Assembly (NCBI GenBank): GCA_963810275.1
Contig: CAWENF010000026.1
Coordinates: 38,024-102,023 of the forward strand
Source of the DNA: an uncultured archaeon
GTDB taxonomy: Archaea; Thermoproteota; Bathyarchaeia; Bathyarchaeales; Bathycorpusculaceae
Length of the DNA stretch: 64,000 nt
Direction: 5' to 3'
Part shown: piece after piece, positions 15,487 to 37,689 of the stretch
How the letters are laid out: the number at the start of each line of letters is the position of its first letter
Position numbering within the stretch: the first letter of the stretch is position 1
Program-made: the position numbers and the translations under genes
Notes under the pieces: model-generated
What the model was told of the DNA's origin: nothing
What the model saw: the letters and a program-made list of their open reading frames with translations, nothing else
The model's database searches: none

Positions 15487-15727
15487 AAACTTCACCTCCT
15501 AAAATACTACGGAAAAGTAAACATTAATAATGCCGAATAAGGGCTCATAAACATATGTTGTTGGCGCATGTTAGCAACACGCCCCTTTTGCCAATTCCTC
15601 ACCAAACTAAACATGAAAATATGCGCCCGAAATCAGCTAGCAAATGTAGGGTAGTCCCATAAGGTGGGTAGAAGTTAACTTAAATACAGTGAATTATCCA
15701 CTAAATAGATCATTGAGTACCCACAAG

Positions 15728-17209
15728 ATGAAAATTCTCCTAATTAACCCTCCACAGACGTTTTACGCTGGGTCAGAGCCACCCGCTGGGAACCTGCCGT
15801 TAGGCTTAATGTACATAGCTGCTGTGCTCAAAAAAGCGGGGTATACTGTGGAGATTTTGGACGCCTTCTTTTTAGGCGCAGACTACTCAGAAGATGATGA
15901 CGTTATAACCGTTGGACTAAGCAGTGAACAGATAAAACAAGAAATCCAAAAACGCAAACCCGACATAGTGGGCGTGGCAGGTCCATTCACGTGCCAAGTC
16001 GGACATGCAATCGAAGTCTGCAAAGCCACCAAAGAAACCGACCCCAGCATCTTAGTTGTTGTCGGTGGACCACATGTAACTTTAATGCCCAAAGAATTCC
16101 TTTCAGAAAACCTCTGTGTGGATGTGGTAGTGACTGGCGAAGGCGAATATACCATGCTTGAAATCGTCCAACGCTATGAAAAGAAAAAGGATTTCAACGG
16201 CGTTTTAGGCGTCGCTTATCGAGATGGCGACGAAGTAGTTGTTAACCCACTGCGCCCTTTCATATGCGATCTTGACGAACTGCCCTATCCCGCCTACGAT
16301 TTGGTGGACATGGAGCAGTATTTGGGTCCAAGCAAAATCGGCTACCGTAGCTTTCAAGACCGCTCCGTCTCAATGGTAACGAGCCGTGGCTGCCCGTTTA
16401 ACTGCTGCTTCTGCGCCGTCCACTTACACATGGGACATAAATTCCGTGCCCACTCTGCGGAGTACGTGCTTGATCACATCCAATACGTGGTGGATAAATA
16501 CAATGTACGCAACATCTTTTTTGAAGACGACAACTTGACGCTGGATTTGAAGCGGTTTGAAGCCATCTGTGACGGCTTAATCCAACGTAGACTGCACGTG
16601 GGCTGGGAAACCCCCAACGGTGTCCGAGCAGACTGCCTAACAATGGAGCTGCTTAAGAAAATGAAGCGGTCAGGTGTCAAAAGCATCTTTGTAGGCGTGG
16701 AGTCAGGCGACCAGCAAATCCTTGATAACGTCATCTGCAAAAGCCTAAACCTTGACCGTGTTGTCGAGTTTGCCAAAAACAGCCACGAATTGGGATTGAA
16801 GACTGGTGCTTTCTACATTATTGGGTTCCCTGGGGAAACTAAGGAGAATATGCAGCACACCGTTGATTTCGCTTTAATGCTTAAACGCAAATATGATGTG
16901 GGTATGCATTTGTTTGCCGCGACGCCTAGCTATGGCACAAGGCTTTATGATGAATGTAAAGCTAAAGGATATTTGCCGGCGGATTTATCTTGGAACAGTT
17001 TTGCACAGGCAAGACAAGCCAAGGGGTTGCCATTGATCACTACACCTGATTTTGCGCCGGAGGAGGTCAAGGAGATAGCTGCGAGGGCTCTGGCGGAATA
17101 TAAGAAACTATCTTTGTTGGGACACTTTAAGCATCCGCGAAAAACCTTGCGAACGGTATTTGACCAGCCACAGTTGATTATAAAGTACATAAAAAACCTT
17201 ATTTCCTAA
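15728..17209 (+). CDS. B12-binding radical SAM protein (class B methyltransferase-like)
   Basis: PLGLMYIAA, GGPH, GEGE cobalamin-binding domain; SRGCPFNCCFC; FEDDN; GVESG. Confidence 0.93.
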   Translation: MKILLINPPQTFYAGSEPPAGNLPLGLMYIAAVLKKAGYTVEILDAFFLGADYSEDDDVITVGLSSEQIKQEIQKRKPDIVGVAGPFTCQVGHAIEVCKATKETDPSILVVVGGPHVTLMPKEFLSENLCVDVVVTGEGEYTMLEIVQRYEKKKDFNGVLGVAYRDGDEVVVNPLRPFICDLDELPYPAYDLVDMEQYLGPSKIGYRSFQDRSVSMVTSRGCPFNCCFCAVHLHMGHKFRAHSAEYVLDHIQYVVDKYNVRNIFFEDDNLTLDLKRFEAICDGLIQRRLHVGWETPNGVRADCLTMELLKKMKRSGVKSIFVGVESGDQQILDNVICKSLNLDRVVEFAKNSHELGLKTGAFYIIGFPGETKENMQHTVDFALMLKRKYDVGMHLFAATPSYGTRLYDECKAKGYLPADLSWNSFAQARQAKGLPLITTPDFAPEEVKEIAARALAEYKKLSLLGHFKHPRKTLRTVFDQPQLIIKYIKNLIS

Positions 17210-22238: not shown

Positions 22239-22518
22239 ACCTGTGTTCCTCGGGTAGTATTCGTTTTTTGTTAGAGATAACGGTTATGCTTCTGGAGTTT
22301 GAAAGCTCCTTCTTGTTATGGGTGTCCTGATTGGTTTTCGTTTAGTTTTGTGAAAAATTTTTTTCAATTATTTATTGGCTGCGGCTTTGATCCCACAAAC
22401 TTCTGTGCTTGCAAACAGTTTTGGTCTGGTTTTTTTATCTAAACATGTATGTTGGGTTGCTTGCGGAAACACAAGCAGCTTCAAAAAATAAAAAATGCTG
22501 TTGCGGAATGCAGGTTTG

Positions 22519-23430
22519 TTAAATCAACACTAAATCGGCTTCGGTTGGTAAACCGTCGCGTGCACCCATTTTCATGACGCTTCTGGACGCCACAAAGTTA
22601 CCGAGGCGGCCACATTCGAAAAGCGGCTTGTTATGGATTAAACCGTAGAGGAAACCCGCATCGAAAGCGTCGCCTGCACCTGTGGTGTCCACTGCGGCAA
22701 CTTTGTAGGGTTGGATTATGTCTTTTTGTTGTCCGTTTGTGAGGTAGCAGCCTTTAGCGCCTAATTTGACGGCAACGATTTGTACGCCCATGTTGAGCAA
22801 AGCTTGTGCACCTTTGGGTATTTCAGATTCGCCCGTGATTAGCCTGAGTTCCAGCTGGTTGGGCATCATAACAAAACTATTCTGGATTATGGGTTCAATG
22901 GCGGCTATCCCCTTCTGTGCGTAGAGGGAGCCAGGGTCAAAGCTGACTTTAACGTGCTCGGGCAGAAAGCTCATCAGTTTTTTCTGGGTACGGAACGATT
23001 TTTCGCCCACAAAGGATGAGAGGTGAAGGAATTGTGTATTGGTGACGTAGGGCGGGTTTATTTCCCGGAACTCGATAGTGTCATTGACGCCGGGGTTAAT
23101 GTATAGCGCCCGTGCACCTTTCTTATCGACAAAGCCTATACAGACACCACTTTTGCCTTTCGGCGAGCGTACAATTCCGTCGGTGTCAACTCCTTCCTGT
23201 GCGAAGCAGTCAATTTGGAGTTTGCCCTCATGGTCGTCGGCGACTTTGCCGACAAAACCGACTTTGCAGGCCAACCGTGCCAAGCCAACCATGGTGTTAG
23301 CTGCTGAACCCCCGCATGCCTCCGCATAGTCATGGATGAAACTCTCCTCTTCAGGGCCAGCTATCTTGTCGACTTTAAGCAACGTATCAACGTTGAGTGC
23401 TCCAAATCCTACTACATCAAAGCGTGTCAT
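22519..23430 (-). CDS. PfkB/ribokinase-family kinase (EhaT-like)
   Basis: GGSAAN, VSFDPG, DTTGAGDAF; ATG overlaps the ftr stop. Confidence 0.93.
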   Translation of the reverse strand: MTRFDVVGFGALNVDTLLKVDKIAGPEEESFIHDYAEACGGSAANTMVGLARLACKVGFVGKVADDHEGKLQIDCFAQEGVDTDGIVRSPKGKSGVCIGFVDKKGARALYINPGVNDTIEFREINPPYVTNTQFLHLSSFVGEKSFRTQKKLMSFLPEHVKVSFDPGSLYAQKGIAAIEPIIQNSFVMMPNQLELRLITGESEIPKGAQALLNMGVQIVAVKLGAKGCYLTNGQQKDIIQPYKVAAVDTTGAGDAFDAGFLYGLIHNKPLFECGRLGNFVASRSVMKMGARDGLPTEADLVLI

Positions 23431-24331
23431 TGGAAAATCTCACTTAGTGGAATCTTGTATTTGCCCAGTTTACCTTCATAGTTGCCTGCCGATATACGCA
23501 CGACACCGGGCACGGCTATTGAGGCTTCGATACCAGCTTTGGTAGCGGCTTTTAGTGCTTCGACAGAGACACCATCGTAAACGATCTCGGCAATGTAATT
23601 CACGCCCTCAGGCACCCAACTTTCCTTACCCAACTTGGCTTTGAGTGAGGGACAGAAGTGGTGATTGGTTGTGGGACCGATTTCTGGAAACTTTGTTTCA
23701 GGTTTGCTGCCTGCCGAGCAAATGTCAAAAGTAGTTACGACACCCTCAACCTTGTGCATGGCATCCAATGCAGCTCTGCTAGCGGTTTTAAGCGATTCTT
23801 TGCTGGTACACATGAGCCAAAAGTTGCCGCCTGCCACACCCTTAGCATAACCGATGTAGTGCTCGATTACGAAGTCTGGAACCATCAAGGGAACAACGAT
23901 AACTTCTCTTCCATTGCGCTGCTCTACCCATTCGTAGCCGTCGCCGCAGTGACCCACGCGGGGCATCATGTCCAGCTTGCCCTCTGCGTTGGTAGGGCAT
24001 CGTAGATGGCGGTGAAGGGTTTGACGAGGATGTCTTGGCGGATGCGGTAGCTGAGTTCCTTCTCGAATTTTTCAAGGGATTGCTGGAAGGTTTTTTTTGG
24101 ATCAATTTGCCCCCAGAACTGCAAAATCGCACCGACGCGGTGGTCTGGTGTGTCTTCTTCGCTGAGGTAGCGTTCGACGCCGCCCTCAGTCCTACCAATG
24201 ACGGTGGCAGGGGTGGCAGTTGAGTCCGACGCAGCTTTGCATAGTGTCTCCACATCGTCTGCTGTCACTATTATTCGGCAGTAAATGCCTTCGAAAGCTT
24301 CAATGTAAGTATCATCAATTTTTTTGTCCAT
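23427..24331 (-). CDS. ftr: Formylmethanofuran:H4MPT formyltransferase paralog (Ftr-2/EhaS-like), one frameshift near 23990
   Basis: [54 protein letters not shown] split across two frames. Confidence 0.9.
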
Positions 24332-25412
24332 TTATCCCAGTCTCCCTATGCTTACTCCACGAACTCGTCTTTCGGTAGTCGCTTGAGTCTTTAGTAATCG
24401 AATCCATGTTTTTGGATGTTACTATTTGAACTTTCGACAACCCATCTGCTGTTACCTTTTGGAATTGTCGCAGTAAATCTTCGTCCACACCACTCTGCTG
24501 CAAGGCTTCTGGGCTCCAGTTCGCGACCAAACTTAGGGCTTCGACTTTACCCTGCTTGCAGAAAACGTCAGCAAGGACTGCAGTCACCAAGTTACTTTCA
24601 GATTGAACAGCGATTTCGGCGTTTTTGACGGCATAGCTGTTGCCGTTAAACGACACCGACAAACCCCCGCCCTCAAGAACCAAACGGAAGGCTTCGACAT
24701 CGGTTATGCTGTCACCCACATACATGACATCTTTGAGGTCACAATTGTGGCGTTTAGCTGCGTCTCGGATGGATTCGGCTTTCTGCTCACCTCCAACGGT
24801 GACTATGTTTAAGAATTTGCCCACAGACATCTTTGGCAAGATTTCCCAAAAGATTTCGTCAAACCGCTGCAAAATCTCTTGGTCACGATCACAGAAATCC
24901 TCTGCCGAAGCTGCGCCCTGTGGGATGTCTATTAGGCGGGTTTGGGCAATTTCCTGTACGATTTCCCTGAGTTGTTCGCGCTCTTTGGGGGTGATTGGGA
25001 TTTTGTCCAGCGACACTTTGGTGCAGTACGTGTTTTGGTAGGGAAAACCTACTGCTTTGCAAAGGGCGCTAATATAGTGCTCGTAGCTTGTGGAAACTAT
25101 GTATGGGTCAGAGATGCCCAAGACGTGCTGGAGCATGGTTTGGCTACCGGCTATTAAGAGGATGTTCTGCGCCGAGAAATCCTCCATCATCTGGTCGGTG
25201 ACTCCGTAGGCTTTGAAAAAGGGCAAAATCAGCTTAAGAGTGCTGCCAGCCGTGTATCCGGACTTATAAAATACGTCGGCTAAAACATCGTCGTACTTGC
25301 TGATATTAGCGAAAAAACTATCTCCCTTTGGGATGAAGTGTTCTGCCAGTTCGTAGGCGTTATCGTTTTTGCTTATGGGTCCTTCGCAGTCGGAGACGAA
25401 GAGGCGCTTCAC
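24332..25412 (-). CDS. HAD-superfamily hydrolase (COG4030 / EhaR-like), frameshift near 24368
   Basis: FVSDCEGP, STSY, GGEQK, YVGDSITD, SFNGN; corrected C-terminus RKRVRGVSIGRLG ends at a TAA abutting the ftr ATG. Confidence 0.85.
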
Positions 25413-26825
25413 TTCTGCCGCCTCAACTGCTCCATGTGTCGTATGCTGTTTGCGATGTGGTTTTGGTCTGCGATGTCGGTGCGATTCCAAAGTGCACCGC
25501 CTGTGATAGCTTTGGCGCCTTCCTGGCTGATAATTTGGGCTTCCTCGATGCTGTCACCGATTCCTAGAATGCCAATGGCTCTGGATTTAAGGGCGTAGTT
25601 TTTGCCGTCGCGTACCTCCATGGAGCCGGGGTAGATGCGGATTTTGTCTCCGTATTTTGCGGTTAGGGCTTCGGCTTTAATAAGGTCAACTGCTCCGCCA
25701 ACTGCTGCTTTGTCGAGTTTGTCTGGGAATGCTTCGGAGTAGCCTCCATAGCCGGGCGGAACCTTGTAGGTCAATACCGTGGCGGATTTCTCAACTGCCA
25801 CAGAAGTGAGTGTACCGTCTACCATGCGCAGGCAGAGATCAGCAAAGTCGTCTTTTAGCACGGGCAGCACATTCATGATTTCGGGGTCACCAGGGCGGCT
25901 GTTAATTTCCAAAATCTTAATTCCTTTACCCGTATGCATAAACGCAAGGTACAATGGGACTCCTCTGAGCGCCGTGTCATCAGGGATTCTCTTTCTCCAT
26001 CCATCGAAAACTTGAGCTACTAAAGCCAACTCTGCCTCGCGATCTGCCTCAGTTAGGAAGGGAAGATAATCCTTGGTGTCTTTGTAGGAGCCCATGCCTC
26101 CCGTGTTGGGGCCATGGTCGCCGTCAAACGCACGTTTATAGTCACGGGTGTCGGGCAGGGAAATGAAGTGTTTGCCGTCGCTAAAGCCCATGCAGCTGGA
26201 TTCTTCACCAGGCAATTTTTCCTCAATTAGAACGATACCGTACTTGAAGCTTGATAAGAAATGCTCGAAGAGCTCTTCTCTGGTTTGGAAATGGTCGCCC
26301 CAGACGCCCACGCCTTTGCCCAATGCTGGTTTGTCTGGTTTGACGACGGCTTGGTTGCCAAGCTCGTCGAGCCACTTGTAAACTGCTGTTTTAGCGTCGG
26401 CTTCGCTTTGGTAGTCTTGGGGGTTGAAAACTTTGAATCGTGGGTTAGCTTCAGGCGCAATCTCCTCGAAAAGAAGCCGTTGCGCAACTTTGGATTCTTC
26501 GATGGCATACGCCTTTTTGGGGCAGACAACTGGTACGCCGACTTTTTCTTCGATTAAGTCGCGGATACCTTTAATTATAGGGCTCTCTGAGCCTACCAGG
26601 ACGAAATCCAAGGCGGATTTGTTGGCTTCTGCAAATTTGCAGATTTCGTCAACATCTGAGGCTAGGGATGACTGCATGTTTTGTTGCGTGGGCTGCGTTG
26701 AAAGGGTTACGTTGCTTATCCGCCACGTATAATTCAACTTTGTGATTTTTGCTTCTGAGGAGTGCATCTGCCATGGCAACTTCTCTTGCGCCATAAGAAA
26801 CTAGTAGGACACCGAGCTTATCCAT
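25409..26825 (-). CDS. purD: Phosphoribosylamine-glycine ligase, frameshift near 26660
   Basis: N-terminal SYGARE in an upstream frame; GKGV, DYKRAFDGDHGPNTGGMG, EINSRPGDPE. Confidence 0.93.
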
Positions 26826-26875
26826 CCAAAGTACACCGTTGTAGGTAAAGTTTGTACGCTAACAGTTAATAGCAG

Positions 26876-28378
26876 TTACGCCTGCACTTCTTCGCTCTCG
26901 TAGATTCTACCCTTCTCCTCGTATCCTTCCTCAAAACGCCTCTTCATGGCATCCGCCATTTTCTGCGCACAAGGCGTAGGGTACTTACCTGTGATGCATG
27001 CAAGGCAGAGGTCGTCTCTGTCGAGGTTGATGGCTTTAATTAAGCCGTCAATGGATTGGTAGCAAACGCCGTCAGCGCCTATGATTTTAGCAATTTCCAC
27101 GTCGTCGTTGCGACTGCCTATGAGTTGTCCATAACTGGACATGTCGATGCCATAGAAGCAAGGACCAATGATTCTGGGGAAAGTGATGAAGACGTAGATT
27201 TTTTTTGCCCCAGCTTGACGCATCTTTTCTATGATAACTTTGGTTGTGTCGCCGCGCACGACGCTGTCCTCGGTTATGATAACATTTTTTCCCTGAACTT
27301 TTTTGCCTAAAATGTTGATTTTCTTATCAATCGTGTTGTAGCGTTCCGCGTTTAGTAGAATGAAAGCACGTTCGGTTACATAGCGGTGCCGCCTCGAGCA
27401 GCGTTCCCAACGTAATCCCGAAGCCTCATGCACACCCATGGCTGAGTCGTCGCCAGTTTCAGGAACCGACATGATGATGTTGCATTCTTTGACGATTTCT
27501 GGATTTTCTTTAACGATGTTGCGCCCAAATTCTTCGCGAACTTCATAGACATATTTGCCGTTGAAAATCGAGTCTGGACGTGCAAAGTAAGCGTATTCAA
27601 AAGCGCAGAAGGCGGATTTGGGGTTCTTAACTACTTGGATACGCTTAAAGCCGTCTTTAGATGCTATTGCGAGCTCGCCAGGGTTTAATTCAAAATCGCG
27701 CACAAGACTATTCATGTCTAAACTGACGGTTTCAGAAGAAAACGCGAAAGTTTTTGAGTGGGGGTCATGTCCAGCGCAAAGAGGCTTTATACCGTGGGGG
27801 TCTTTGAAGGCAAAAAAATCGCCTTCTCCAGTGATGCCAGTTACGCTGAAGGCTCCGTCCAAACCTTCCATGACAGTTTTGGCGGCCTCCTCGAGGTTTT
27901 TGTTTTTGCGGTAGGCGAGCAACATTTTGTGACAGACAAGGTCTGAGTCGCAGTTGTACCTGGCTTCGGGGAAGTTGTCAAACATTTCCTTTTTGAGTGG
28001 TAAGGTGTTTACTATATTACCGTTAAAGGAAACTGCGAGCGCAACACCATCGCTTGATGCGACGACCGGCTGGGTGCCCTGCACGATGGATACGTCATCA
28101 CATTTGCCTGAAGTGGTGTAGCGGACATTTCCTATACCTATTGAGCCTGGCAGCCGTGCGAACCATTCGTTTATGGCGTTGCTCTTGACCTTTGGAACGA
28201 GGTCTAGGTTTTTGTATGTGAAGTACTGACCAGAGTTGTATGTGAGGAAGCCATGTGACTGGTGTCCTCTGTGGTTCTGTGCTCTTAGTCCCCAGTAAAT
28301 ATAGGGGAAGACAGGTTGATTTTCATAGTTTATAGCGCCAAAGATACCGCAGCCCGTTTTTTGGTTCCCTTCTCGCGT
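26876..28378 (-). CDS. purF: Amidophosphoribosyltransferase, apparent ACG start
   Basis: CGIFG, NHRG, GNVRYTTSG, EDSVVRGDT, PCFYGID, CLAC; alternative TTG start at 28414. Confidence 0.96.
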   Translation of the reverse strand, partial: TREGNQKTGCGIFGAINYENQPVFPYIYWGLRAQNHRGHQSHGFLTYNSGQYFTYKNLDLVPKVKSNAINEWFARLPGSIGIGNVRYTTSGKCDDVSIVQGTQPVVASSDGVALAVSFNGNIVNTLPLKKEMFDNFPEARYNCDSDLVCHKMLLAYRKNKNLEEAAKTVMEGLDGAFSVTGITGEGDFFAFKDPHGIKPLCAGHDPHSKTFAFSSETVSLDMNSLVRDFELNPGELAIASKDGFKRIQVVKNPKSAFCAFEYAYFARPDSIFNGKYVYEVREEFGRNIVKENPEIVKECNIIMSVPETGDDSAMGVHEASGLRWERCSRRHRYVTERAFILLNAERYNTIDKKINILGKKVQGKNVIITEDSVVRGDTTKVIIEKMRQAGAKKIYVFITFPRIIGPCFYGIDMSSYGQLIGSRNDDVEIAKIIGADGVCYQSIDGLIKAINLDRDDLCLACITGKYPTPCAQKMADAMKRRFEEGYEEKGRIYESEEVQA

Positions 28379-29105: not shown

Positions 29106-29594
29106 TTAATAATCGACCCTAAACTGCTCATTTAAAGTTCTACACCAATCAGTGATTCTCCGCTCAGTATCCGCCTTATTCTTAGAGGGGTCTTTTAGCG
29201 GCAACTCACCCACAACATCAACGCCGAGCAGCATCTCATAGATTTTCTCGCTTGCCTGCTTAGGGTCAGAATCGAAAGTATAGAAAAATGCCACCCGCCT
29301 GCCCTCCAAAACGTTGCGTGCCACATATGTTCGCAACGCAGGTGTGGGTGCCCAAGCCCAAATCGGAGTACCAAGTACGATGAGCTCGTAGTCGCAGGAC
29401 GCCTTACTCGTTGGTGCAATTTCGGTTTGCTTTTTCTGCATTGCTTCTCTGCCGCCTGAAAGCCAGCCAAGTTTACCTTCGCGTTTTTTGAGATCCACGA
29501 TTTCCTCAAGATCTGCGCCTAACTCGGCTGCAATTGCTTCGGCTACAGTGCGGGTCTTACCTGTTCGGGTATAGTAAACGACTAAGCACTTCAT
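29106..29594 (-). CDS. Flavodoxin family protein
   Basis: YYTRTGKTRTVA, LGTPIW. Confidence 0.9.
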   Translation of the reverse strand: MKCLVVYYTRTGKTRTVAEAIAAELGADLEEIVDLKKREGKLGWLSGGREAMQKKQTEIAPTSKASCDYELIVLGTPIWAWAPTPALRTYVARNVLEGRRVAFFYTFDSDPKQASEKIYEMLLGVDVVGELPLKDPSKNKADTERRITDWCRTLNEQFRVDY

Positions 29595-29724
29595 AGTAGA
29601 TCAAATAACTGGTTGGAGGCTCTGGATATAAGAAATTTGCTATGAGTATATAAATCAGACAAGAAACAAACTGAAAACTAAACGATAGAAATTAATTAAA
29701 AATATAAAAGAAAAGTTGGGATGG

Positions 29725-31134
29725 CTATGGTTGCCATTTGTCGATGATGTATTTCGGAATCTCGCTGCTGTCGCGTGGTCCGACGAGGACTTTCCAGCCA
29801 GAGAGTTCTTCGATTTCGCCGCTGATGCGTGAAGCTTTGCCTGGGCTGATGATTCTGCGGTGTTTAACTTTTTGTTCGATGCCGCTTTGTTTGATTGCTT
29901 CTGCGATTTTCTCTGCAGTGAGTTTGCGTCCTGCAACGCCGCTGTCTATTGCACTGCCTTCTGCGTCGACGACTATGAGGTATGCGTTAGTTTTGCTTGA
30001 TTCAATGTCGGAGGCGACTGTATAGTAGGTTAAGGCGAAGTTGCTTGTGAACATGACTGGACTGTTTTCGTCTGGGGTGCCAATTACTTTGAGACCTGGT
30101 TCGACTGCGACTGGCTTGCGTGGGTCAGTGTAGATATTCTGGCGAAGTACGGTAACTGGAAGTAGGCTCCATCCGTCGTTGCCATGCATGATGATTGCGT
30201 CTGCATAGCGGACAACAAGCATTGATGCGATGTAAGATTCACGCCATTTGATGAGGTCGTCTGCTGTTTCGCCCTTGTTTGCCCATGCAACCATGGGTAT
30301 GCCGAGCAATGGTAAACCTGCGAGTGCGTCGCCGGCTTTGGTGGCTGCGCGTCTCAGCATTGTAAAGTTGTTGAGTGTGTCTTGTAAGCCTTCGTTTGTG
30401 AAGGTACCTGGGTCAAGTACGATATCTTTAACGCCGTACACTGTGAGTGTCTTTGCCAAGGAGACGAGCCCGTTTAGGTCGTTTGGTGAAGATGCCACGA
30501 GGGGTGCGTCGTACATGATTGCGAGTTCAGCCATTTCTTTCCAGTTTTGGGTGGTTGCTGCGTAGAGTAATGGTCGTGCTTTGGGTGCTGCCATTATGCC
30601 TGCTTCCATGACTTGTGGGTTCATGGCGCAGAGAATCAAGGGCAGACCAGTAGTTTCTGAGACTTTCTTGACACATACCTTGAATTTATCTGCGTCGTCA
30701 GAGGTGCAACGGACTGCTATCATGTCGAGTTTAAGGGTGTTGCCGATGTACTCGTAGCTAAAGTTGTCGGTTTTCTTTACGCGTGCAACTACTTCGCTTT
30801 CGGACATTTCATCAGTGACGTCGATTGCAATTGCGGTTGGGTTCTTGTAGGTGAGTTCGTGGCGGTACATAACGAGTTTGCCGCCGATTTTTTTGGCTTT
30901 GTCTCCCACACCGATCGTGACTTCTTTGACTGCTGGTTTAAGCATTTCTTTGAGTGCAGCATATTGTTTTGCGTATTTGGGGTCTAGCAGGGGTTTGCAA
31001 GCGTCAAGTTCAACTTCACGGTTGACTAGCTTGGTGGCAAAAGCCATACAGTTGTCTTGGCCACATTCTTTGCAGTTAGTTTTCGGAAGGTTCTTGTAGA
31101 TGGCGATTGGACTAAGGTCTTTTTTATCTGCCAT
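29725..31134 (-). CDS. cdhE: ACDS complex gamma subunit
   Basis: LPKTNCKECGQDNCMAFA, VMYRHE, NIYTDPRKP, TSNFALTYY. Confidence 0.97.
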   Translation of the reverse strand: MADKKDLSPIAIYKNLPKTNCKECGQDNCMAFATKLVNREVELDACKPLLDPKYAKQYAALKEMLKPAVKEVTIGVGDKAKKIGGKLVMYRHELTYKNPTAIAIDVTDEMSESEVVARVKKTDNFSYEYIGNTLKLDMIAVRCTSDDADKFKVCVKKVSETTGLPLILCAMNPQVMEAGIMAAPKARPLLYAATTQNWKEMAELAIMYDAPLVASSPNDLNGLVSLAKTLTVYGVKDIVLDPGTFTNEGLQDTLNNFTMLRRAATKAGDALAGLPLLGIPMVAWANKGETADDLIKWRESYIASMLVVRYADAIIMHGNDGWSLLPVTVLRQNIYTDPRKPVAVEPGLKVIGTPDENSPVMFTSNFALTYYTVASDIESSKTNAYLIVVDAEGSAIDSGVAGRKLTAEKIAEAIKQSGIEQKVKHRRIISPGKASRISGEIEELSGWKVLVGPRDSSEIPKYIIDKWQP

Positions 31135-31148
31135 TTAAGTCATGTCTC

Positions 31149-32378
31149 CTAAGCTTCCACCTTGACCCAATCCAGAAACTTGGCTGGGTCTACTTTCTTG
31201 TTAGCTGTTAAGTAGTTAGTGACGTCTTTTAGGGTTTTTACTGCTGCGGGGTGCATCATCATGAATAAGTCGACGCCTGCAGTTAGCAATGTGAGGGCTG
31301 TTGTGACTTCCCAAAGTGGACCTCTGAGTTCACGTGGCTCCCACTCCTCGGACATCTTGAGCCAAGCTTCACGTGCTGCCCAGGCGTTGGTTGTACCAGA
31401 GGACATTGGCTGTGCAAGTTCCATGTCACCCATTAAGCCGGCGATGCGTGCGCGTTCCATGTTGGTGAATGCGTAGTCTAAGCCGTAGCCAAGAGCGGCA
31501 GTTGTTAAGTCCATGATTATGTCTTCGCGTGCAAGGTGGTCAAAGAGGTGTCTGTTTAGTTCGCGTGCAAAGTTAAGGTCCATTGGTGTGAATGCGAGGA
31601 CTGCGTGGCCTGCTGGCTTGATGAATTTAGCACATTTTTCGACGTCCATGTCTCGTGTAACTGAGCTGATTAGGAAGCGTTCGCCTGGGAACTGTGCGCA
31701 TACCTCTTCGAAGAGTGCAGTGTCTTTAACTGGGTCACCGCATCCGCCGATAACTAGAGGTACGTCAACTGCCTGTAGGACTTTCTCGATGGTTTTGCAT
31801 GCGTCTTTGGGTGTGGCGTCTTTAAGAAGTGGATCCACGCTGATAAGGTGAAGTGTAACCATGTCTGCGCCAAACTTTTCAACTGCAAGCTTCGCCCATG
31901 CAGCTGGGTCGCCGACGACTTCTTTAACGTGCATCTTAACGGCTTTGGACAGGGGGACTTCCATGTCGAAAACGTCGAGTGTGACAACTGGCTTGTGTGG
32001 CATTGGGTTCTCAAAGGTATAGAAGGCAGGAGATAATTCTCCGCCGATGGTGACTGTTTTGCCGCGTGTGCCGCCTTCGCTTTTAGTTGCGCCTAGTTTA
32101 ACTGATGCGATTTTGTTAGGGTACTTCTCGACTGGTGGCTGGAAGGGAACCTGCAGTAAACTGGTAGGTTTGCCTCCGGGTGCTGCTGCGCCGGGCATTT
32201 TGAGTTTCGGCATGATTTGCGGTACCATGCCTGGCTCAATAAGGATTTGCAGTTCGCTGGTTTCAAGCTGGAAATCTTCCAACTCGATGCTCTTGAACTT
32301 TGCCAGTGCCTCTAAGAGATCTTCAGTTAACTGAAGACCTTCTTCGCTTTTCTTTTTGTCTGTGTCGTGGTGAGTCGT
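31149..32378 (-). CDS. cdhD: ACDS complex delta subunit, apparent ACG start
   Basis: GATKSEGGTR, TTAALGYGLDY, NAWAAREAW, MMHP; frame stays open upstream to ACG at 32378 behind GGTGA. Confidence 0.95.
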   Translation of the reverse strand, partial: TTHHDTDKKKSEEGLQLTEDLLEALAKFKSIELEDFQLETSELQILIEPGMVPQIMPKLKMPGAAAPGGKPTSLLQVPFQPPVEKYPNKIASVKLGATKSEGGTRGKTVTIGGELSPAFYTFENPMPHKPVVTLDVFDMEVPLSKAVKMHVKEVVGDPAAWAKLAVEKFGADMVTLHLISVDPLLKDATPKDACKTIEKVLQAVDVPLVIGGCGDPVKDTALFEEVCAQFPGERFLISSVTRDMDVEKCAKFIKPAGHAVLAFTPMDLNFARELNRHLFDHLAREDIIMDLTTAALGYGLDYAFTNMERARIAGLMGDMELAQPMSSGTTNAWAAREAWLKMSEEWEPRELRGPLWEVTTALTLLTAGVDLFMMMHPAAVKTLKDVTNYLTANKKVDPAKFLDWVKVEA

Positions 32379-32391
32379 TGGAGATCACCGT

Positions 32392-33804
32392 TTACTTTTT
32401 CTTTTCATCCTTGACGGTTTGGATGACGACTTTGTTGGCGTAGATTTTGGCGTCTTTGAGGATGATCTTGAATCCGCCGGCCATGATTGGCAGGGATCCT
32501 GCTGTTGCAACTGGCATCGCGCTTCCTGCTGCTTCCTCGTTGATTGCGAGTGCAGATGTTTCTTCTGCTGCGGGGGCTTCTTCTGCTTCCCATCTCTGAA
32601 CGACTGGGTGATTCTTCTCTTTGAGAAATGCTTTTAGTTCGTCAACGTTTTTAGCGTCTTCTTCAGTTGCGATTTTGTCAACAACGTCTGCTGGAATGAA
32701 TTCTTTGACTTTTTCTTTGACTTCTTTGGGTACCCAAACGATGCGGTTCCAGCCACCGTCTGCTGCGAAGAATTTGCTGCTTCGCATGTATTCGATTGAC
32801 ATTCCGTGGAATCCGTCAACTTGTCGTCCGCCTGCTGCGGAGTCTGCTAAGGTGCTGAATGGTAAGCCGTTTACTGCTGCGCCTTTAAAGTTGCGTTGAA
32901 CGACACCAAGTCCGTCGACTTCTGGGATGTAGAATGTTATTGCTTCGAAGCATCCGCATGAAGTGTGTGGATAGTCAAATGCGGTGTAGAGCCAGACTTT
33001 GTTTACTTCGCCCATGCTGCGTTGTTTTGCTGCTTCGTTGACGCCGCTGAATTCGCCTTTTTCCTCGTTAATAATTTCGCCTCTTGGAATTGCGAAGACT
33101 GGACCCTTGGGGTCAATGCTTGCTGAGGCTTTGCCGTCGAACCAGCTGATGGCACCGCAGTTGCTGTATCTTTGTGGAGTAATAACGCAGACGTGGCTTG
33201 GGGCAAATGACTGGCAGAGTGCACAGCCATAGAATTCGGAAACTTCAGAATCTTTTAGGCCTCTAGCTTTTGCGTCACGTGCTTCGTAATCTTGCATTGC
33301 TTCAGGGGTCATTTTGTCTAGTGTTGCCGGGTCTGTTATGAAGGTAACCTGCACCTTCTCAACAATTGGCAATTCGCTCTTAAAGAGACGGTAGACAACT
33401 TTGCCGATTGGTTCAAAGCTGTTAAGGCCTTTCTGGAAAGCTTTCTTGCCGATACGAATCCAGATGTCATAGCGCTGGTTTAAGTGCATGAAGCCTTCGA
33501 TGTAGTTGAGGTAACCGTGAATACGCCTTTCAAGGACACCTTCAAGACCTGCGTCGAGTTTTTCGCCTGCTGCTTCAATAAGGATACCGAATGGGTATGC
33601 GCCGCCTTCCTTTAGGTCTTTTAAGTCTGGACCGATAATGGTGATTTTTCCATCTTCGATCTCGTTCATGGGTTTTACTTTTGCCAGTTCAAACTTTTGT
33701 TTGACTGTCGGTCCGCCGAGTTCGACTTGCATGTCGTTTCTGCGGATACGTTCGCCTTCGTATATTACGCCGACGTCTACAGGGATATCTTTAAACATTG
33801 ACAT
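32392..33804 (-). CDS. cdhC: ACDS complex beta subunit (acetyl-CoA synthase)
   Basis: YEGERIR, HLNQR, CALCQSFAP, PHTSCGCFE. Confidence 0.98.
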   Translation of the reverse strand: MSMFKDIPVDVGVIYEGERIRRNDMQVELGGPTVKQKFELAKVKPMNEIEDGKITIIGPDLKDLKEGGAYPFGILIEAAGEKLDAGLEGVLERRIHGYLNYIEGFMHLNQRYDIWIRIGKKAFQKGLNSFEPIGKVVYRLFKSELPIVEKVQVTFITDPATLDKMTPEAMQDYEARDAKARGLKDSEVSEFYGCALCQSFAPSHVCVITPQRYSNCGAISWFDGKASASIDPKGPVFAIPRGEIINEEKGEFSGVNEAAKQRSMGEVNKVWLYTAFDYPHTSCGCFEAITFYIPEVDGLGVVQRNFKGAAVNGLPFSTLADSAAGGRQVDGFHGMSIEYMRSSKFFAADGGWNRIVWVPKEVKEKVKEFIPADVVDKIATEEDAKNVDELKAFLKEKNHPVVQRWEAEEAPAAEETSALAINEEAAGSAMPVATAGSLPIMAGGFKIILKDAKIYANKVVIQTVKDEKKK

Positions 33805-33808
33805 TTTC

Positions 33809-34354
33809 TTAGTTTCCTCCTTCATTAAATTTTGAGGTCATTACTTTGAGGTTTTCAGCCCATACTTCTGCTCCTGCATTGGGGAAGGACCAGCTTGCGT
33901 GGGCGTGATAGGTGTTGTCAAGAGTCATGGTTTTGAGGTCTGGTGCGAAGTGTTTGAGTCCCGAGAGGATCAAAGCTTCCATATAGTAGGGTAAGCCCAC
34001 GTACATGACTAGGTCTGGGTGGCCTTTGCCGTCCAGTCCCATCCAAGTTGGGTCTACTACTCGGTTGCTGATATCCATTGCGTTCATGAAGCCTGCTGGG
34101 GTGTAACCGCGTTTGACAAATTCGCCGACTATGTGTGCGGTTGCAACAACTGGGACTTTGCTTGCTTTTGCGAGGTCAATGATGAAGTCAATGACGGGTT
34201 TGCCGTCCAACTGTCTTGCGACGACATTGCTGCCCACAATAAGAAGGGGGCGTTGGGCCCGTTTGATCATTGCTACGGCTATCTCGGGTTTTTGTATTGG
34301 GTTTGCTTTCTTAGTTGCAGCTATTTCTGCACATTGCCATGGTTCACAGGACAT
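33809..34354 (-). CDS. cdhB: ACDS complex epsilon subunit
   Basis: IKRAQRPLLIVG, WMGLDGKG, LKHFAP; lies between cdhA and cdhC. Confidence 0.95.
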   Translation of the reverse strand: MSCEPWQCAEIAATKKANPIQKPEIAVAMIKRAQRPLLIVGSNVVARQLDGKPVIDFIIDLAKASKVPVVATAHIVGEFVKRGYTPAGFMNAMDISNRVVDPTWMGLDGKGHPDLVMYVGLPYYMEALILSGLKHFAPDLKTMTLDNTYHAHASWSFPNAGAEVWAENLKVMTSKFNEGGN

Positions 34355-34370
34355 AATTTTTCTCCTCCAT

Positions 34371-36719
34371 TTACTCCTTTACCTTTCTGACCATTCTAGG
34401 AAGCATTGTTGGGTCCGGAATTATTGATTCCTTCCAGTTATGCTCTTTGAGGATTTTGGTGATTTCATCTTTCATTGTAATGGGTATGTCTGCTGGTGTT
34501 CTGATGAACTGGTGGATGTCTGCTGGCATGACTCCGTAGTGGCGTTTGTGCAGGTCGATGTAGTGAGTCAGTTTACCCATACGTCCCTTCCATGTGTCGT
34601 TTGGTCTAAGGCAGAGTTTTGCAATCATAACCATTGCTTCTTGTGGAGTTTCGACAGTTTGGAAGAGGTGTTCTGGTGCTGGACCGACGTTTACTGTGTC
34701 GCCTGTGCGTGCGTCTAGGATTTCCCAGTTTTCTGGTTTGTCCGATCTGCCTAAGAGCATGCGGCGGTATTTGGCTCCGTGCGGGCCGACTAGAACTGGA
34801 ACACCAAGGCTCCAGAAGCCGGATGCGATTGAGGCTGCTTTCTGTGAGTATGCGCCCCAAGCTAAGCCTACTGCACCGACACGGTTGTGGATGTAGTCAG
34901 CTATTTCCTCGTAGTTACCTCTGAGGTTCCGTTTTGCAAAGATGTTTGCTACTTTGATTGCTGCGCCTGCGATGTGTGGATTAGAGACACAGGAGCCGAC
35001 GTTGAGAACTCCTCCTGCTTCGAATCCGCCTGGGAATTCTTCGTAGAGTGTTTTGCCTTCTTCGTTTTTGTATGAGCCAGCTGACATTGCTGAACATCCG
35101 GATGTTACAACGATATATCTGCGTAAAGCGAATTCTCTTGCGATGTCGTAGACGTCTTTGCCGCCGTTTGGATAGTTTGCGCATCCGACTAAAGCAACGA
35201 TGCCTGGAATTTCGCCGAGCACAATGGGTCCGCCGACGCTTCTAATTTCGACATCGCCAACTGCTCCTCTGCCTGAGCGGCAATAGTTGGTTTCTGCAAG
35301 CATCTTCTTTTCGCCGACTTTGAGGATATAGCTGTGGATTTCGAGTTTAGCTGGGCACGCTTCTTCGCATCTTCCGCATCCGATGCATGCTTCGTAGAGG
35401 TCTGCTAGTTTTGAGTAGTCGCCTTCTGATGCTGCTTTGATTGCAGGTTCGATTGCAAGGTCTTGTGGGCAGCTTCTTTGGCATAGGTTGCAGTGGCGGC
35501 ATGCTTTGGAGAGCTCTTTGATTTGTTCGAGTTCTGGGAGTGACTTCATCTTCTTGCGGATTGGTGCTACTGCTTGTGCGACACGGACTGCGACTTCGCC
35601 GACTTTTTCTGGGTCAAGGATAAGGACACCTGGGACTCTGTAGTTAACAAGGTCGTCAACAATTTGGTCAGCTGGGTCGTTTGTGCGGTCTTTGTAGCCG
35701 ATGCAGTTCTTCTCTGAGGCTGCGATTACTGGTGCCTTAACGCGTTCGGCTTCTAGTGATGCGTCTGTGCGGACACATTGTTCGTCAAGCACAACTACGT
35801 CTGCGAATCCGCCGCGAATGAATCGAAGTTCCCAAGAGATTGGGCCGACGATTTTTGCGCGTTCAAAATATCTTGTGTTGTCAATGGCAGTGCAGCATAA
35901 GCCAACGACTTCCATTTTATCGTCAAGTTTCTGTTCTTTCATGAAGTCAATGATGCCGACTGAGGGAATTACGTTGTGGCCGATGCACATGATAACTGGT
36001 TTGGTTGTATCTACCGTGCCGATACCCATCTCAATGAGGGGTGCTTCGGGGTCTGCCTTGGGGAAGCCCAATGTTGAAATTTGAGCAATATCTGCGATTT
36101 CCATGCCAACCTGGTCCATTCTGCCTGCATGGAATGCTTTGGACTCAAAATCTAAGTTGTTGGCTTCTTGACCTGTGTGGGCTGCTGAGAGGCAGTGGGT
36201 AATTTGTGACTCTGTGTATGCTAGGATGTCATCTAAGTCGCCGATTGTTTCTGGTTTAACTCCGGTAATAAGCCTGGTGACTGGAGCTTCAACCTTGACA
36301 TTTAATCCACCTACATTGAGGGGAAATTTGCGACCGTAGACTTCAATTAAGTGGTCGACTACGTGGCGAGCGTGTGCGTTGTGAGTTGCAGCACCAATGC
36401 AGCATGCAATAAGCACAATACGCGAGGACTGGTCTGCTATGTTTAGTCCGCATGCACCGCGTTTTCCTGCTGTTAAGTCACATTTACCATATGTGCATAA
36501 ACAGCAGAGGTCACAGTCGGGCATATAGAAGGGTTTGTATTTGTTGAGCAATTTCATATCCCAGTCGCGGAGCGTACTGATATGGGGCATTGGGGTTGGA
36601 CCCATTGGTTCATCCCAGTTGTCTGTGACAACTTTACCAAGGGACAACTCGAGGTTCTTGATAAGACCGGCGTTGGTCTTCATTTCACCTATTTTTACAC
36701 GGACGTTTTTACTAGTCAA
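34371..36719 (-). CDS. cdhA: ACDS complex alpha subunit (CO dehydrogenase)
   Basis: CCLCTYGKCDL, GHNV, CCTA, DEQCVR, two ferredoxin motifs, GSCVSN, SQKAA; TTG at 36719. Confidence 0.98.
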   Translation of the reverse strand: MTSKNVRVKIGEMKTNAGLIKNLELSLGKVVTDNWDEPMGPTPMPHISTLRDWDMKLLNKYKPFYMPDCDLCCLCTYGKCDLTAGKRGACGLNIADQSSRIVLIACCIGAATHNAHARHVVDHLIEVYGRKFPLNVGGLNVKVEAPVTRLITGVKPETIGDLDDILAYTESQITHCLSAAHTGQEANNLDFESKAFHAGRMDQVGMEIADIAQISTLGFPKADPEAPLIEMGIGTVDTTKPVIMCIGHNVIPSVGIIDFMKEQKLDDKMEVVGLCCTAIDNTRYFERAKIVGPISWELRFIRGGFADVVVLDEQCVRTDASLEAERVKAPVIAASEKNCIGYKDRTNDPADQIVDDLVNYRVPGVLILDPEKVGEVAVRVAQAVAPIRKKMKSLPELEQIKELSKACRHCNLCQRSCPQDLAIEPAIKAASEGDYSKLADLYEACIGCGRCEEACPAKLEIHSYILKVGEKKMLAETNYCRSGRGAVGDVEIRSVGGPIVLGEIPGIVALVGCANYPNGGKDVYDIAREFALRRYIVVTSGCSAMSAGSYKNEEGKTLYEEFPGGFEAGGVLNVGSCVSNPHIAGAAIKVANIFAKRNLRGNYEEIADYIHNRVGAVGLAWGAYSQKAASIASGFWSLGVPVLVGPHGAKYRRMLLGRSDKPENWEILDARTGDTVNVGPAPEHLFQTVETPQEAMVMIAKLCLRPNDTWKGRMGKLTHYIDLHKRHYGVMPADIHQFIRTPADIPITMKDEITKILKEHNWKESIIPDPTMLPRMVRKVKE

Positions 36720-36856
36720 ATCTGATAACCTCTGTAAAGGTTTAGTATGAGACTGAATTACAATCTTTTTAAACCTTTCCAGATTCTTTATGCAAAATTC
36801 AGGTTCCAATTTATGGAATGTTAGGTTTAGGAAAAATTGTGTAAAAAAAAAGGCGG

Positions 36857-37621
36857 TTAAAGGTAACCTAAATTTTCCAGTATTTTTTTGACGGAAAGGT
36901 ATGCTTTGTTATCATTGGGTAACGATAATAGTGATTCTCCGTCCAAAACATGTTGGTCCAGCTGTTCGTCAGCCTCGATTTTCCCCAAATACTTGAATTT
37001 AAGATCCTCTTCAGCTTGCTTACCGCGTTCTTCTGGGAAGCGGTAGCCGCCAATTAAGTAAAAGTTTTCAAATTTCATGTCAACTTCTTTAGCAATTTTA
37101 TAAGCTCTAAGCACATGGTCTTTTGACTTTTTGGAGTGGTCCAAAATGTCGAAAACATCGTTTACAGAGGAAGTTATTCGCCTGTTAAGGTTCTCTAAGC
37201 CTGCAGGTGAGTCGACGATAACATACTTATAGGTTTTAGTGAGGTTCTCCAACGCGTTTTTTAGTGCAGTATTGGGCATGCAGTAGCAGCCTTCAACCCA
37301 CTTGTTACCGACCGCCATAAAGTCGAAGTGTTCGCTTTCGTAGAGTCCCCCTTCCCAGATACGGGCTTCAATTCGTTGCGCTGGGGGGACGCCGACTGTG
37401 GTTCCGCCGCTGTCGATGAAGGTGGCTACGATGAGGTCAGCTATGGTTGATTTACCTGCTTCTTTTAAGTCTACACCTAGCATTTCGGCTAGATTTTGGT
37501 CTGGGTCAGCGTCAACCAGAAGAATTGGGGATTGTTTTGCTTCGATGAATGCTTTAGCCATAAGGGCGGTAAAGCTGGATTTGCCGGTACCACCACGGCC
37601 GACTGTGACAAGAGTTTTCAT
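36857..37621 (-). CDS. cooC: CooC/AcsF-type nickel insertion ATPase
   Basis: GRGGTGKS, DADPDQNL, GCYC, DSPAGLE. Confidence 0.92.
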   Translation of the reverse strand: MKTLVTVGRGGTGKSSFTALMAKAFIEAKQSPILLVDADPDQNLAEMLGVDLKEAGKSTIADLIVATFIDSGGTTVGVPPAQRIEARIWEGGLYESEHFDFMAVGNKWVEGCYCMPNTALKNALENLTKTYKYVIVDSPAGLENLNRRITSSVNDVFDILDHSKKSKDHVLRAYKIAKEVDMKFENFYLIGGYRFPEERGKQAEEDLKFKYLGKIEADEQLDQHVLDGESLLSLPNDNKAYLSVKKILENLGYL

Positions 37622-37689
37622 AACATAACAAACCTCGACGAGTTATTCATTGTTTAAGCGAAAGCATGCATATATTTTGTGTGGTTTGT

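Follow-up and report, generated by a model that had tools for sequence, protein, structure and literature searches.

A formyltransferase paralog, a HAD-superfamily protein and a PfkB-type kinase coupled to purD: a candidate route for glycinamide ribonucleotide formylation in Bathyarchaeia

How is glycinamide ribonucleotide (GAR) converted to formylglycinamide ribonucleotide (FGAR), the third step of purine synthesis, in an archaeon in which neither PurN nor PurT is found? The question is raised by a 64,000-nucleotide stretch of DNA from an uncultured member of the Bathyarchaeia (contig CAWENF010000026.1 of assembly GCA_963810275.1, positions 38,024 to 102,023), referred to here as the window. 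In it, purF and purD are followed by genes for an EhaR-type protein of the haloacid dehalogenase (HAD) superfamily, a paralog of formylmethanofuran:tetrahydromethanopterin (H4MPT) formyltransferase (Ftr), named Ftr2, and a kinase of the PfkB family. The genes purF-purD-EhaR-Ftr2-PfkB probably form one purine unit whose last three members provide the conversion of GAR to FGAR without PurN or PurT. The case is built on gene order, tight coupling, intact genes, phyletic complementarity, partner replacement and gene fusions, from which the acceptor, the donor and all of the chemistry would be deduced. The unit consists of the following features:

28414-26876, minus strand: purF (purine step 1; Pfam GATase_7/GATase_6), first gene of the unit
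26825-25409, minus strand: purD, GAR synthetase (step 2) of a divergent subtype (Pfam GARS_N/A/C)
25412-24315 as the annotated open reading frame (ORF), minus strand: EhaR-type HAD-superfamily protein (Pfam Hydrolase_3/HAD)
24331-23966, minus strand: ORF for lobe 1 of Ftr2 (Pfam FTR, E 9.9e-33)
23969-23427, minus strand: ORF for lobe 2 of Ftr2 (Pfam FTR_C, E 9.2e-55)
24331-23427, minus strand: Ftr2 taken as one gene of 301 aa (FTR plus FTR_C), paralog of formylmethanofuran:H4MPT formyltransferase
23430-22519, minus strand: PfkB-family (ribokinase-like) kinase (Pfam PfkB, E 9e-53), last gene of the unit

The genes are tightly coupled, as an earlier note on this DNA had described, and the junctions can be read directly from the sequence. 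The TGA stop of purD (25411-25409) overlaps the GTG start of the HAD gene (25412-25410) to give GTGA at 25412-25409, and the Ftr2 stop overlaps the PfkB ATG to give ATGA at 23430-23427. If one base near 24369 is taken out, the HAD reading frame terminates at ...RKRVRGVSIGRLG-TAA (24334-24332), a stop that abuts the ATG of ftr (24331) and agrees with intact homologs. The extra base at this site alters the last ~17 codons of the HAD gene. Two further one-base frameshifts, not in the earlier note, split Ftr2 near 23988 (a missing base) and break purD near 26656-26658. Contigs of four public DNA runs were compared with window positions 22400-26900 and differ from it by one-base indels at 23988 (runs X1 and X2, both showing a C inserted after this position), 24369 (X1), 26656 (X1) and 26658 (X4). 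Because the public contigs carry in-frame versions at these positions, the three breaks are assembly errors and the organism's genes are whole. In the nearest relative locus (L005) all ORFs are whole, with a PurD of 472 aa, a HAD protein of 359 aa (counted from the aligned GTG; the ORF listing gives 385 aa from an upstream GTG), an Ftr2 of 301 aa and a PfkB of 304 aa. Single-frame Ftr2 matches, starting at residue 6 or earlier and ending at residue 298 or later, occur in 79 of 83 related loci. A fourth one-base indel relative to the public contigs, at 22445, is intergenic. With four single-base indels in 4.5 kb, three of them gene-breaking, the assembly probably has many such errors, and other split ORFs in the window are therefore suspect.

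The cluster in the window covers purF, purD, purSLQ and purM, and Pfam finds no purN or purT in it. This gap, which had been noticed from the cluster, extends to the source genome (G000; 2.26 Mb, 28 contigs, 92.58% complete, 4.45% contamination), whose contig C26 is identical to the window over bases 38024-102023. A profile search of G000 with PF00551 (PurN type) gave 0 matches, and TIGR01142 (PurT) gave only two weak ATP-grasp matches (46 and 42 bits; cut-off 502), both in one 1101-aa ORF. The window copy of PurD is the only GARS_A match in the genome, formyltetrahydrofolate synthetase (FTHFS) has 0 matches, Mch is present in one copy and FTR_C in two. A canonical Ftr (Ftr1) lies elsewhere, on contig C5, and scores 380.5 bits against the NCBIfam equivalog cut-off of 292.6. 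Judged from its gene content, G000 is an H4MPT-type organism with no signs of folate one-carbon (C1) enzymes and with a canonical Ftr next to a divergent Ftr2. Two tandem PurP genes (DUF1297) are located on contig C21:27757-29401; tandem PurP pairs recur in many Bathyarchaeia regardless of the GAR formylation system. Ftr2 itself has both Ftr lobes (PF01913 and PF02741) and no PurN (PF00551/TIGR00639) or PurT (TIGR01142) domain in Pfam or NCBIfam. What is proposed for it is thus a functional replacement of GAR transformylase, not membership of either family.

The order of the unit is conserved in other Bathyarchaeia species. Among 80 loci from their genomes, found via EhaR and representing the best 80 of 483 relatives, EhaR and Ftr2 are adjacent in all 80. 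The purD gene lies ahead of EhaR in 79 (the single miss is a contig start), PfkB follows Ftr2 in 78 (both misses are contig ends) and purF is upstream of purD in 75. All five genes are present in 73 of the 80 loci with invariant order and strand. The missing gene falls past the contig end in six of the seven incomplete loci, and L051 is without purF. The linkage to pur genes pointed out in the earlier note is conserved in these loci.

Phyletic distribution was examined in 201 Bathyarchaeia genomes at least 80% complete, the same sample serving every query. EhaR was detected via alignment A2 and PurT-like matches were counted at E <= 1e-40. The totals are 82 genomes with (strong) EhaR, 89 with PF00551, 12 with PurT-like and 171 with PurD; one weak EhaR match (G142, E 6.9e-4) was dropped. 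The 171 PurD-bearing genomes divide into 72 with EhaR only, 78 with PF00551 only, 11 with PurT-like only, 6 with EhaR and PF00551, 1 with EhaR and PurT-like and 3 with none, so that exactly one of the three systems is present in 161. Of the 30 genomes without PurD, 22 have none, 3 have EhaR only, 5 have PF00551 only, and PurT-like only, EhaR with PF00551 and EhaR with PurT-like each occur in 0. The anti-correlation of the trio with purN and purT suggested in the earlier note holds as near mutual exclusion, not as a strict one, since 7 of the 171 genomes have two systems. Its wider proposal, that the trio replaces PurN and PurT in GAR formylation, gains likewise from the gap, the synteny and the complementarity and is limited by the same imperfect exclusion. 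In at least four of the seven double-system genomes the PF00551 gene is the module's own partner.

Families act as blocks in this distribution: in f1, EhaR is found in 29/29 genomes and PF00551 in 0/29, and in f18, EhaR is found in 0/50 and PF00551 in 47/50. The mixed family f11 (n=11) has EhaR in 2 genomes, PF00551 in 1 and PurT-like in 7, with no genome carrying two. For the PF00551 proteins in f18 and f15, the best NCBIfam match by a wide margin is PurN, at ~100 bits against a 150-bit cut-off. H4MPT use is not the hidden variable behind the complementarity, because FTR_C is widespread (165 of 201 genomes), including 39 of 50 in the PurN-bearing f18. The usual number of FTR_C copies is two in Ftr2-type genomes and one in PurN/PurT genomes. 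Four genomes of family f28 (genus g72; G097, G112, G136 and G139) have two FTR_C copies and no EhaR; G097 has a PF00551 match and the other three are not among the PF00551 matches, and the additional Ftr paralog of the four may belong to a different kind. A search across the Thermoproteota found EhaR in 41 of 301 genomes. These 41 all belong to Bathyarchaeia families, and none of the 255 genomes from other families has it; the wider search adds no further independent lineages.

New evidence, beyond the checks named in the earlier note, comes from the replacement of Ftr2 by a PurN-like protein and from fusions of EhaR to PurN-like and PurT-like proteins. Four of the six genomes with EhaR and PF00551 (G034, G010 and G002 of family f8, G028 of f21) combine a PurN-like gene with EhaR and PfkB, and no Ftr2 was found in the stretches examined from them. 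G034 and G028 have a contiguous purF-purD-[PurN-like]-EhaR-PfkB order. In G010 about 11 kb separate EhaR from the purF-purD-PurN-like block, in G002 the PF00551 match is on a contig other than that of EhaR, and in a further genome, G124, the PurN-like (PF00551) and EhaR genes are adjacent. The PurN-like gene is the sole PF00551 match in each of the four genomes, and their one FTR_C copy is located elsewhere. The best NCBIfam match of the PurN-like protein is PurN (TIGR00639, E 7e-21), its best PDB matches are E. coli GAR transformylases, and its catalytic residues NxH and D align with those of GAR transformylases. By elimination, there being no other PF00551 and no PurT-like protein, the predicted role of GAR transformylase in genomes of families f8 and f21 must fall to the PurN-like protein. 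These genomes have no PurP (0/3 in f8, none in G028) and have PurH in 4/4 tested, and purH adjoins the module in the f8 genomes. The partner co-varies with the type of 5-aminoimidazole-4-carboxamide ribonucleotide (AICAR) formyltransferase, PurP going with Ftr2 and PurH with the PurN-like protein.

EhaR is fused C-terminally to a PurN-like domain in P0185, and the same fusion is seen in P0271 and P0272 (11 and 33 member sequences). In P0193 and P0201 it is fused to a PurT-like ATP-grasp region, for which PurT models are the best, partial, NCBIfam matches (E ~2.5e-8). By source names the family is also present in bacteria, namely Aerophobetes, Thermodesulfobacteria (including Thermodesulfatator indicus) and Clostridia. 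In the best 80 of 579 relatives on metagenome contigs (L085-L164), the PurN-like and EhaR genes are fused or adjacent, with PfkB within five genes in 21 and a gene for a PHP-domain phosphoesterase directly upstream in 58 (e.g., L139:7243-7914). By sequence family, a constant pair of EhaR and, usually, PfkB combines with three unrelated putative formyl-transfer catalysts, two of which are relatives of the only two known GAR transformylases. The replacement within the operon and the fusions are the strongest evidence for GAR formylation by the module. Ftr2 fills the equivalent slot of the PurN-like protein in folate-free genomes, and formylation of GAR or a derivative by Ftr2 would therefore be the most economical reading.

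The EhaR-type protein has the core motifs of the HAD superfamily. The window copy carries DCEGP, STSY, K and GDSITD, and motifs I-IV are represented by D8, E10, S107/S109, K211, D234 and D238, which are invariant in alignment A2, as are the equivalent residues in A3. Among 150 representatives DxEGP is found in 103, GDSITD in 109 and STSY in 111. A C-terminal tail, RKxVRGxxIGxLG, with glycine as the last residue, is strongly conserved (residues 343-359 of the intact 359-aa homolog P0001, and its homologs) and is lost from the window copy through the assembly frameshift. The family comprises 4832 proteins at E <= 1e-5 among 8000 candidates scored, and a full HMMER search yields 604 clusters (50% identity level) at E <= 1e-3. 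An AlphaFold2 model (predicted local distance difference test score 93.6) has PDB entry 1Y8A (protein AF1437) as its closest fold, with a TM-score of 0.81/0.92, followed by phosphoserine phosphatases and ThrH; 1Y8A also matches by sequence (E 1.3e-28). A complex prediction for Ftr2 (A5) with EhaR (A2) gave a score of 0.00 (mark 0.32) and is neutral on binding.

The PfkB domain (PF00294, E 9e-53) spans residues 5-296, and the translation contains the motifs TTGAGDAF (GAGD) and PNQLE (NxxE). The kinase falls in no curated specificity class: all 23 NCBIfam matches are below their cut-offs, the best being ribokinase TIGR02152 with 166 bits against 299.65, and the best PDB matches are ribokinases. 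At the head of the unit, PurF keeps its catalytic Cys in the N-terminal ...GCGIFG of the window translation. PurD is unusual, with the L005 ortholog (472 aa, L005:6586-8004) scoring 234.4 bits against the NCBIfam purD cut-off of 288. In EhaR-bearing genomes PurD is longer (470-490 aa), covers only ~19-193 of GARS_A and scores ~115-130 bits with this model, as against 145-250 elsewhere. The association of this divergent subtype with EhaR hints at a possible co-adaptation; family f15 has the subtype without EhaR.

A mechanism can be proposed from these features. Ftr2 would be a formyl-transferring enzyme that has kept the Ftr fold. The catalytic Glu of the M. kandleri Ftr structure is apparently kept in Ftr2 within ...AEIVYD...; PMC6926001 yielded no usable active-site residues of Ftr. 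The formyl donor of Ftr2 would belong to the C1 pool bound to H4MPT and methanofuran, being either N5-formyl-H4MPT or formyl-methanofuran, a product of the archaeal branch of the Wood-Ljungdahl pathway encoded in the source genome. The acceptor would be the free -CH2-NH2 group of GAR or of one of its close derivatives. EhaR and PfkB would act on the side of the acceptor or product and not on the C1 donor, because they are the constant partners of whichever formyltransferase is present. Most likely they would handle the ribose 5-phosphate of the acceptor, as phosphatase or phosphotransferase and kinase; a role in presenting the substrate would be less likely.

Several points weigh against this reading. 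HAD and PfkB would be superfluous for a plain transformylase, yet all three catalysts keep them as partners, so the simple picture of Ftr2 as GAR transformylase is incomplete. N5-formyl-H4MPT is a weak formyl donor. Methanopterin-bound formyl as the donor is also doubted in a passage of Brown et al. (2011, PMC3261824). Because the genomes are kin and thus not independent of one another, 2x2 statistics overstate the case and the Fisher p-value is given no weight; metagenome-assembled genomes are also incomplete. PF00551 is not specific to PurN, and no PurT-like match reaches its NCBIfam cut-off (175-303 bits against 502). G130 has Ftr2-EhaR-PfkB plus a separate PF00551 match, G001 has the module plus a PurT-like match, and no system of the three was found in three genomes with PurD. 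According to passages of Chadwick et al. (2022, PMC9012536), ANME-2a and ANME-2b, two groups of anaerobic methanotrophic archaea (ANME), have both Ftr2 and PurN, a counter-example to strict exclusion. The metagenome loci adjoin EF-P-, aminopeptidase-, ClpP-, trigger-factor- and AspS-like genes (neighbours named by eye from N-termini) and not pur genes. Finally, a subgroup of EhaR-like proteins (P0243, P0234, P0219, P0184, P0232 and P0401), whose only named member is from Candidatus Methanomethylophilaceae, is without the Asp nucleophile and without the C-terminal tail; it may represent a non-catalytic derivative.

A broader interpretation is that the trio belongs to an ancient three-enzyme formylation machine, shared by archaea and bacteria, in which the formyltransferase is swappable (Ftr2, PurN-like or PurT-like) and HAD and PfkB remove and restore the acceptor's 5-phosphate. 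In this scheme GAR would first lose its phosphate or be held as a phospho-enzyme, formylation would take place on the riboside, and ATP would then be spent on phosphorylating it again. That cost would pull a transfer that is otherwise close to equilibrium, the donors N5-formyl-H4MPT and formyl-methanofuran being weak. In methanogens the machine would form a direct link between Eha-driven CO2 reduction and purine C8, and the location of ehaR/S/T in the anaplerotic hydrogenase operon would be explained. The cycle of dephosphorylation, formylation and rephosphorylation suggested in the earlier note is possible and would cost one ATP, as PurT does. As a universal scheme it fits poorly with the PurT-like partner, which already spends ATP, and with the EhaR subgroup that has no Asp nucleophile, and the ancient machine is on the whole considered rather unlikely.

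It is improbable that the system supplies formate in the manner of PurU. Ftr2 or the PurN-like protein, together with HAD, would in that case free formate from formyl-H4MPT, formyl-methanofuran or formyl-folate, and the formate would feed PurP or an unrecognised formate-dependent GAR formyltransferase. The two PurP and the missing FTHFS of the source genome would fit such a role, and the PurN-like protein resembles formyltetrahydrofolate deformylase next after PurN (PurU families, E 1.6e-11 and 1.5e-9; PDB 3W7B aligns over residues 3-208). E. coli PurU is also stated to feed PurT in a passage of PMC3261824. However, the PurN-like genomes, which are without PurP, PurT-like and other PF00551 proteins, contain no GAR-directed user of formate, and the complementarity is with the GAR formyltransferases themselves. 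The PurT-like/EhaR fusions would consume formate rather than release it, and many EhaR-bearing genomes (e.g., G011, G007, G013 and G031) have a single PurP.

There is an equally small chance that the trio formylates and phosphorylates some other ribose or amine metabolite, such as a cofactor precursor or a salvage or repair intermediate, and adjoins purD only through shared regulation or precursors. A different acceptor would account for the presence of HAD and PfkB, neither of which a plain GAR transformylase needs, for the 80 metagenome loci outside pur operons, for a kinase above cut-off in no curated family and for the trio of Methanothermobacter at the end of a hydrogenase operon (as described in part of PMC3087415). 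It leaves unexplained why the module is present where PurN and PurT are not found, why it is absent in 22 of 30 genomes without PurD, and why its interchangeable partners are relatives of the two known GAR formyltransferases in particular; the adjacency of purH in f8 also speaks against it.

Very improbable is a division of roles in which formate-dependent formylation of GAR is the work of a PurP paralog or another ATP-grasp enzyme, leaving Ftr2 as merely an additional Ftr isoenzyme in the Wood-Ljungdahl pathway. The two tandem PurP on contig C21 and an Ftr2 score above the NCBIfam Ftr subfamily cut-off (324 vs 297 bits) are compatible with it, and passages of Chadwick et al. (2022, PMC9012536) treat Ftr2 as a divergent paralog of unknown role. 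On the other hand, the PurT-like genomes G005, G016, G068 and G103 also have two PurP and at least 15 EhaR-bearing genomes have one, so the duplication does not follow the gap. A PurN-like gene can take the very position of Ftr2 in the operon, H4MPT-using PurN/PurT genomes keep one Ftr, and it is Ftr1 that passages of the same paper report as the more transcribed copy in ANME. The idea that the trio is decaying, with split Ftr2, altered HAD tail and broken purD as pseudogenes, has three frameshifts in 4.3 kb of the window sequence in its favour and is rejected with near certainty, given in-frame versions at exactly those positions in public contigs from up to three studies, the uninterrupted Ftr2 of relatives and the intact genes of L005.

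Downstream of the proposed GAR-formylating unit, and separated from PfkB by a 280-base gap, the genes for steps 4 and 5 form a separate unit (22238-17437; Pfam basis AIRS/AIRS_C, PurS, FGAR-AT linker and GATase_5):

22238-21156, minus strand: purM, step 5 (Pfam AIRS/AIRS_C)
20893-20642, minus strand: purS, step 4 (Pfam PurS)
20645-18258, minus strand: purL, step 4 (Pfam)
18297-17437, minus strand: purQ, step 4 (Pfam GATase_5)

In the window this block shares the strand of the trio, whereas it is convergent with the trio, on the other strand, in 64 of 64 loci of relatives that contain both purL and PfkB. Its orientation in the window is either an inversion specific to the source genome or a misassembly. 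Just past purQ, on the opposite strand, is a gene for a B12-binding radical SAM protein of 506 aa (15689-17209, plus strand). Directly upstream of purF are the archaeal carbon monoxide dehydrogenase/acetyl-CoA synthase genes cdhE, D, C, B and A (29725-36809), with two flavodoxin-like genes and a gene for a CooC-like ATPase at their flanks (window 29106-38238). The cdhE gene is also upstream of purF in many relatives, so genes of the acetyl-CoA pathway and of purine synthesis are neighbours.

The gap in step 3 has a history. In the relevant passages of Brown et al. (2011, PMC3261824), PurN and PurT were not found in two Archaeoglobi, four Methanobacteriales (printed there as 'Methanomicrobiales') and M. 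kandleri, and since at least 2011 no enzyme has been assigned to the step in Archaeoglobi, Methanobacteriales and Methanopyrus. The same gap was restated for ANME-1 in 2022 (passages of Chadwick et al. 2022, PMC9012536). Ftr2 is reported, again in passages of PMC9012536, from ANME-1, ANME-2a, ANME-2b, Archaeoglobales, M. kandleri and M. marburgensis. Taken together, the cited parts of the two papers imply that all four gap lineages have Ftr2. Statements that reach across phyla rest here on papers, PDB 1Y8A, source names and Atlas leads. In the open-access texts searched, no proposal was found of a role of Ftr2/EhaS, EhaR or EhaT in purine synthesis.

De novo purine synthesis is core metabolism. 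If true, the proposed function would fill in a missing step in the metabolic models of Bathyarchaeia, which are very abundant, and of methanogens and methane oxidisers, and would add a third, unrelated solution for GAR formylation. For the first time, a biosynthetic role beyond energy metabolism would be assigned to the methanopterin/methanofuran formyl pool, and EhaR/S/T and the structural-genomics protein AF1437 would gain functions. Labelling results with different sources for purine C8 and C2, known via passages of Brown et al. (2011, PMC3261824), would be explained as well. The PurN-like version of the module should work in a folate-containing host.

The closest known relative of Ftr2 is Ftr itself. 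Ftr2 aligns end to end with solved structures (PDB 1FTR, 1M5H, 1M5S; FhcD 6S6Y) with E values of 6e-52 to 2e-44, and has the same length (~300 aa) and the same lobes, FTR and FTR_C; the L005 ortholog is a single 301-aa ORF of which residues 4-300 align to 1M5S. It passes the NCBIfam Ftr subfamily NF002554, as given above, and falls below the cut-off of the Ftr equivalog TIGR03119 (223.1 vs 292.6 bits). Ftr2 is 33% identical to the canonical Ftr of the source genome and, by alignment gaps, carries an insertion of ~9 residues relative to both the solved Ftr structures and Ftr1. The motif GHCGDGYEW and a second motif are largely invariant in 26 Ftr2 sequences (alignment A5) and differ from the solved structures and from the genome's own Ftr1, the one Ftr1 sequence compared. 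Unlike Ftr, Ftr2 in the relatives' loci is always within purD-EhaR-Ftr2-PfkB and never with fwd or mch genes. The acceptor of Ftr is methanofuran, whereas that proposed for Ftr2 is GAR.

Among characterised folds, the HAD subfamily IB proteins SerB and ThrH are nearest to EhaR after AF1437, and the weak NCBIfam matches of EhaR are also to HAD-IB. They share only ~10-15% identity with EhaR, which is ~150 residues larger and has the conserved C-terminal tail, and their motif I is DxD, as opposed to DxE in EhaR. The links of EhaR are to formyltransferases and not to serine genes. A SerB-like role in serine or glycine supply was rejected, as it explains neither the EhaR fusions nor the complementarity. 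AF1437 of A. fulgidus (1Y8A), deposited by structural genomics as a 'hypothetical protein', belongs to the same HAD subfamily as EhaR and comes from a lineage that passages of PMC3261824 report to be without PurN and PurT. Its motif I is the DWEGP variant, as in the PurT-like/EhaR fusions P0193 and P0201, so that the module in Archaeoglobus may be the version with an ATP-grasp partner and not the one with Ftr2.

The trio is of the same three families as EhaR/S/T of the Methanothermobacter eha operon, a link made in the earlier note. It agrees with the Joint Genome Institute name of the HAD homologs ('energy-converting hydrogenase A subunit R', EhaR) and with the text of Kaster et al. (2011, PMC3087415), where, in the passages concerned, the annotations given for EhaS and EhaT are Ftr and ribokinase, and their genes are transcribed together with ehaA-R. 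Orthology to the methanogen proteins rests on these names and on literature. An Atlas cluster named EhaR, mostly from Methanobacteriota, has a feature similarity of 0.98 and serves as a lead only. The window trio has no hydrogenase context and is joined to a pur operon, and pur genes are its neighbours in 80 of 80 relatives' loci as well. The name EhaR reflects the gene order of one lineage only.

PurN and PurT, finally, share with the Ftr2 module the proposed product, FGAR, and the place in the pathway. Their folds are unrelated to that of Ftr2, which would use another C1 carrier (H4MPT or methanofuran). PurN and PurT need no accessory genes, whereas Ftr2 comes with two obligatory ones. Their phyletic pattern and that of the module are mutually exclusive, apart from the exceptions described above, and relatives of both serve as alternative partners of EhaR.

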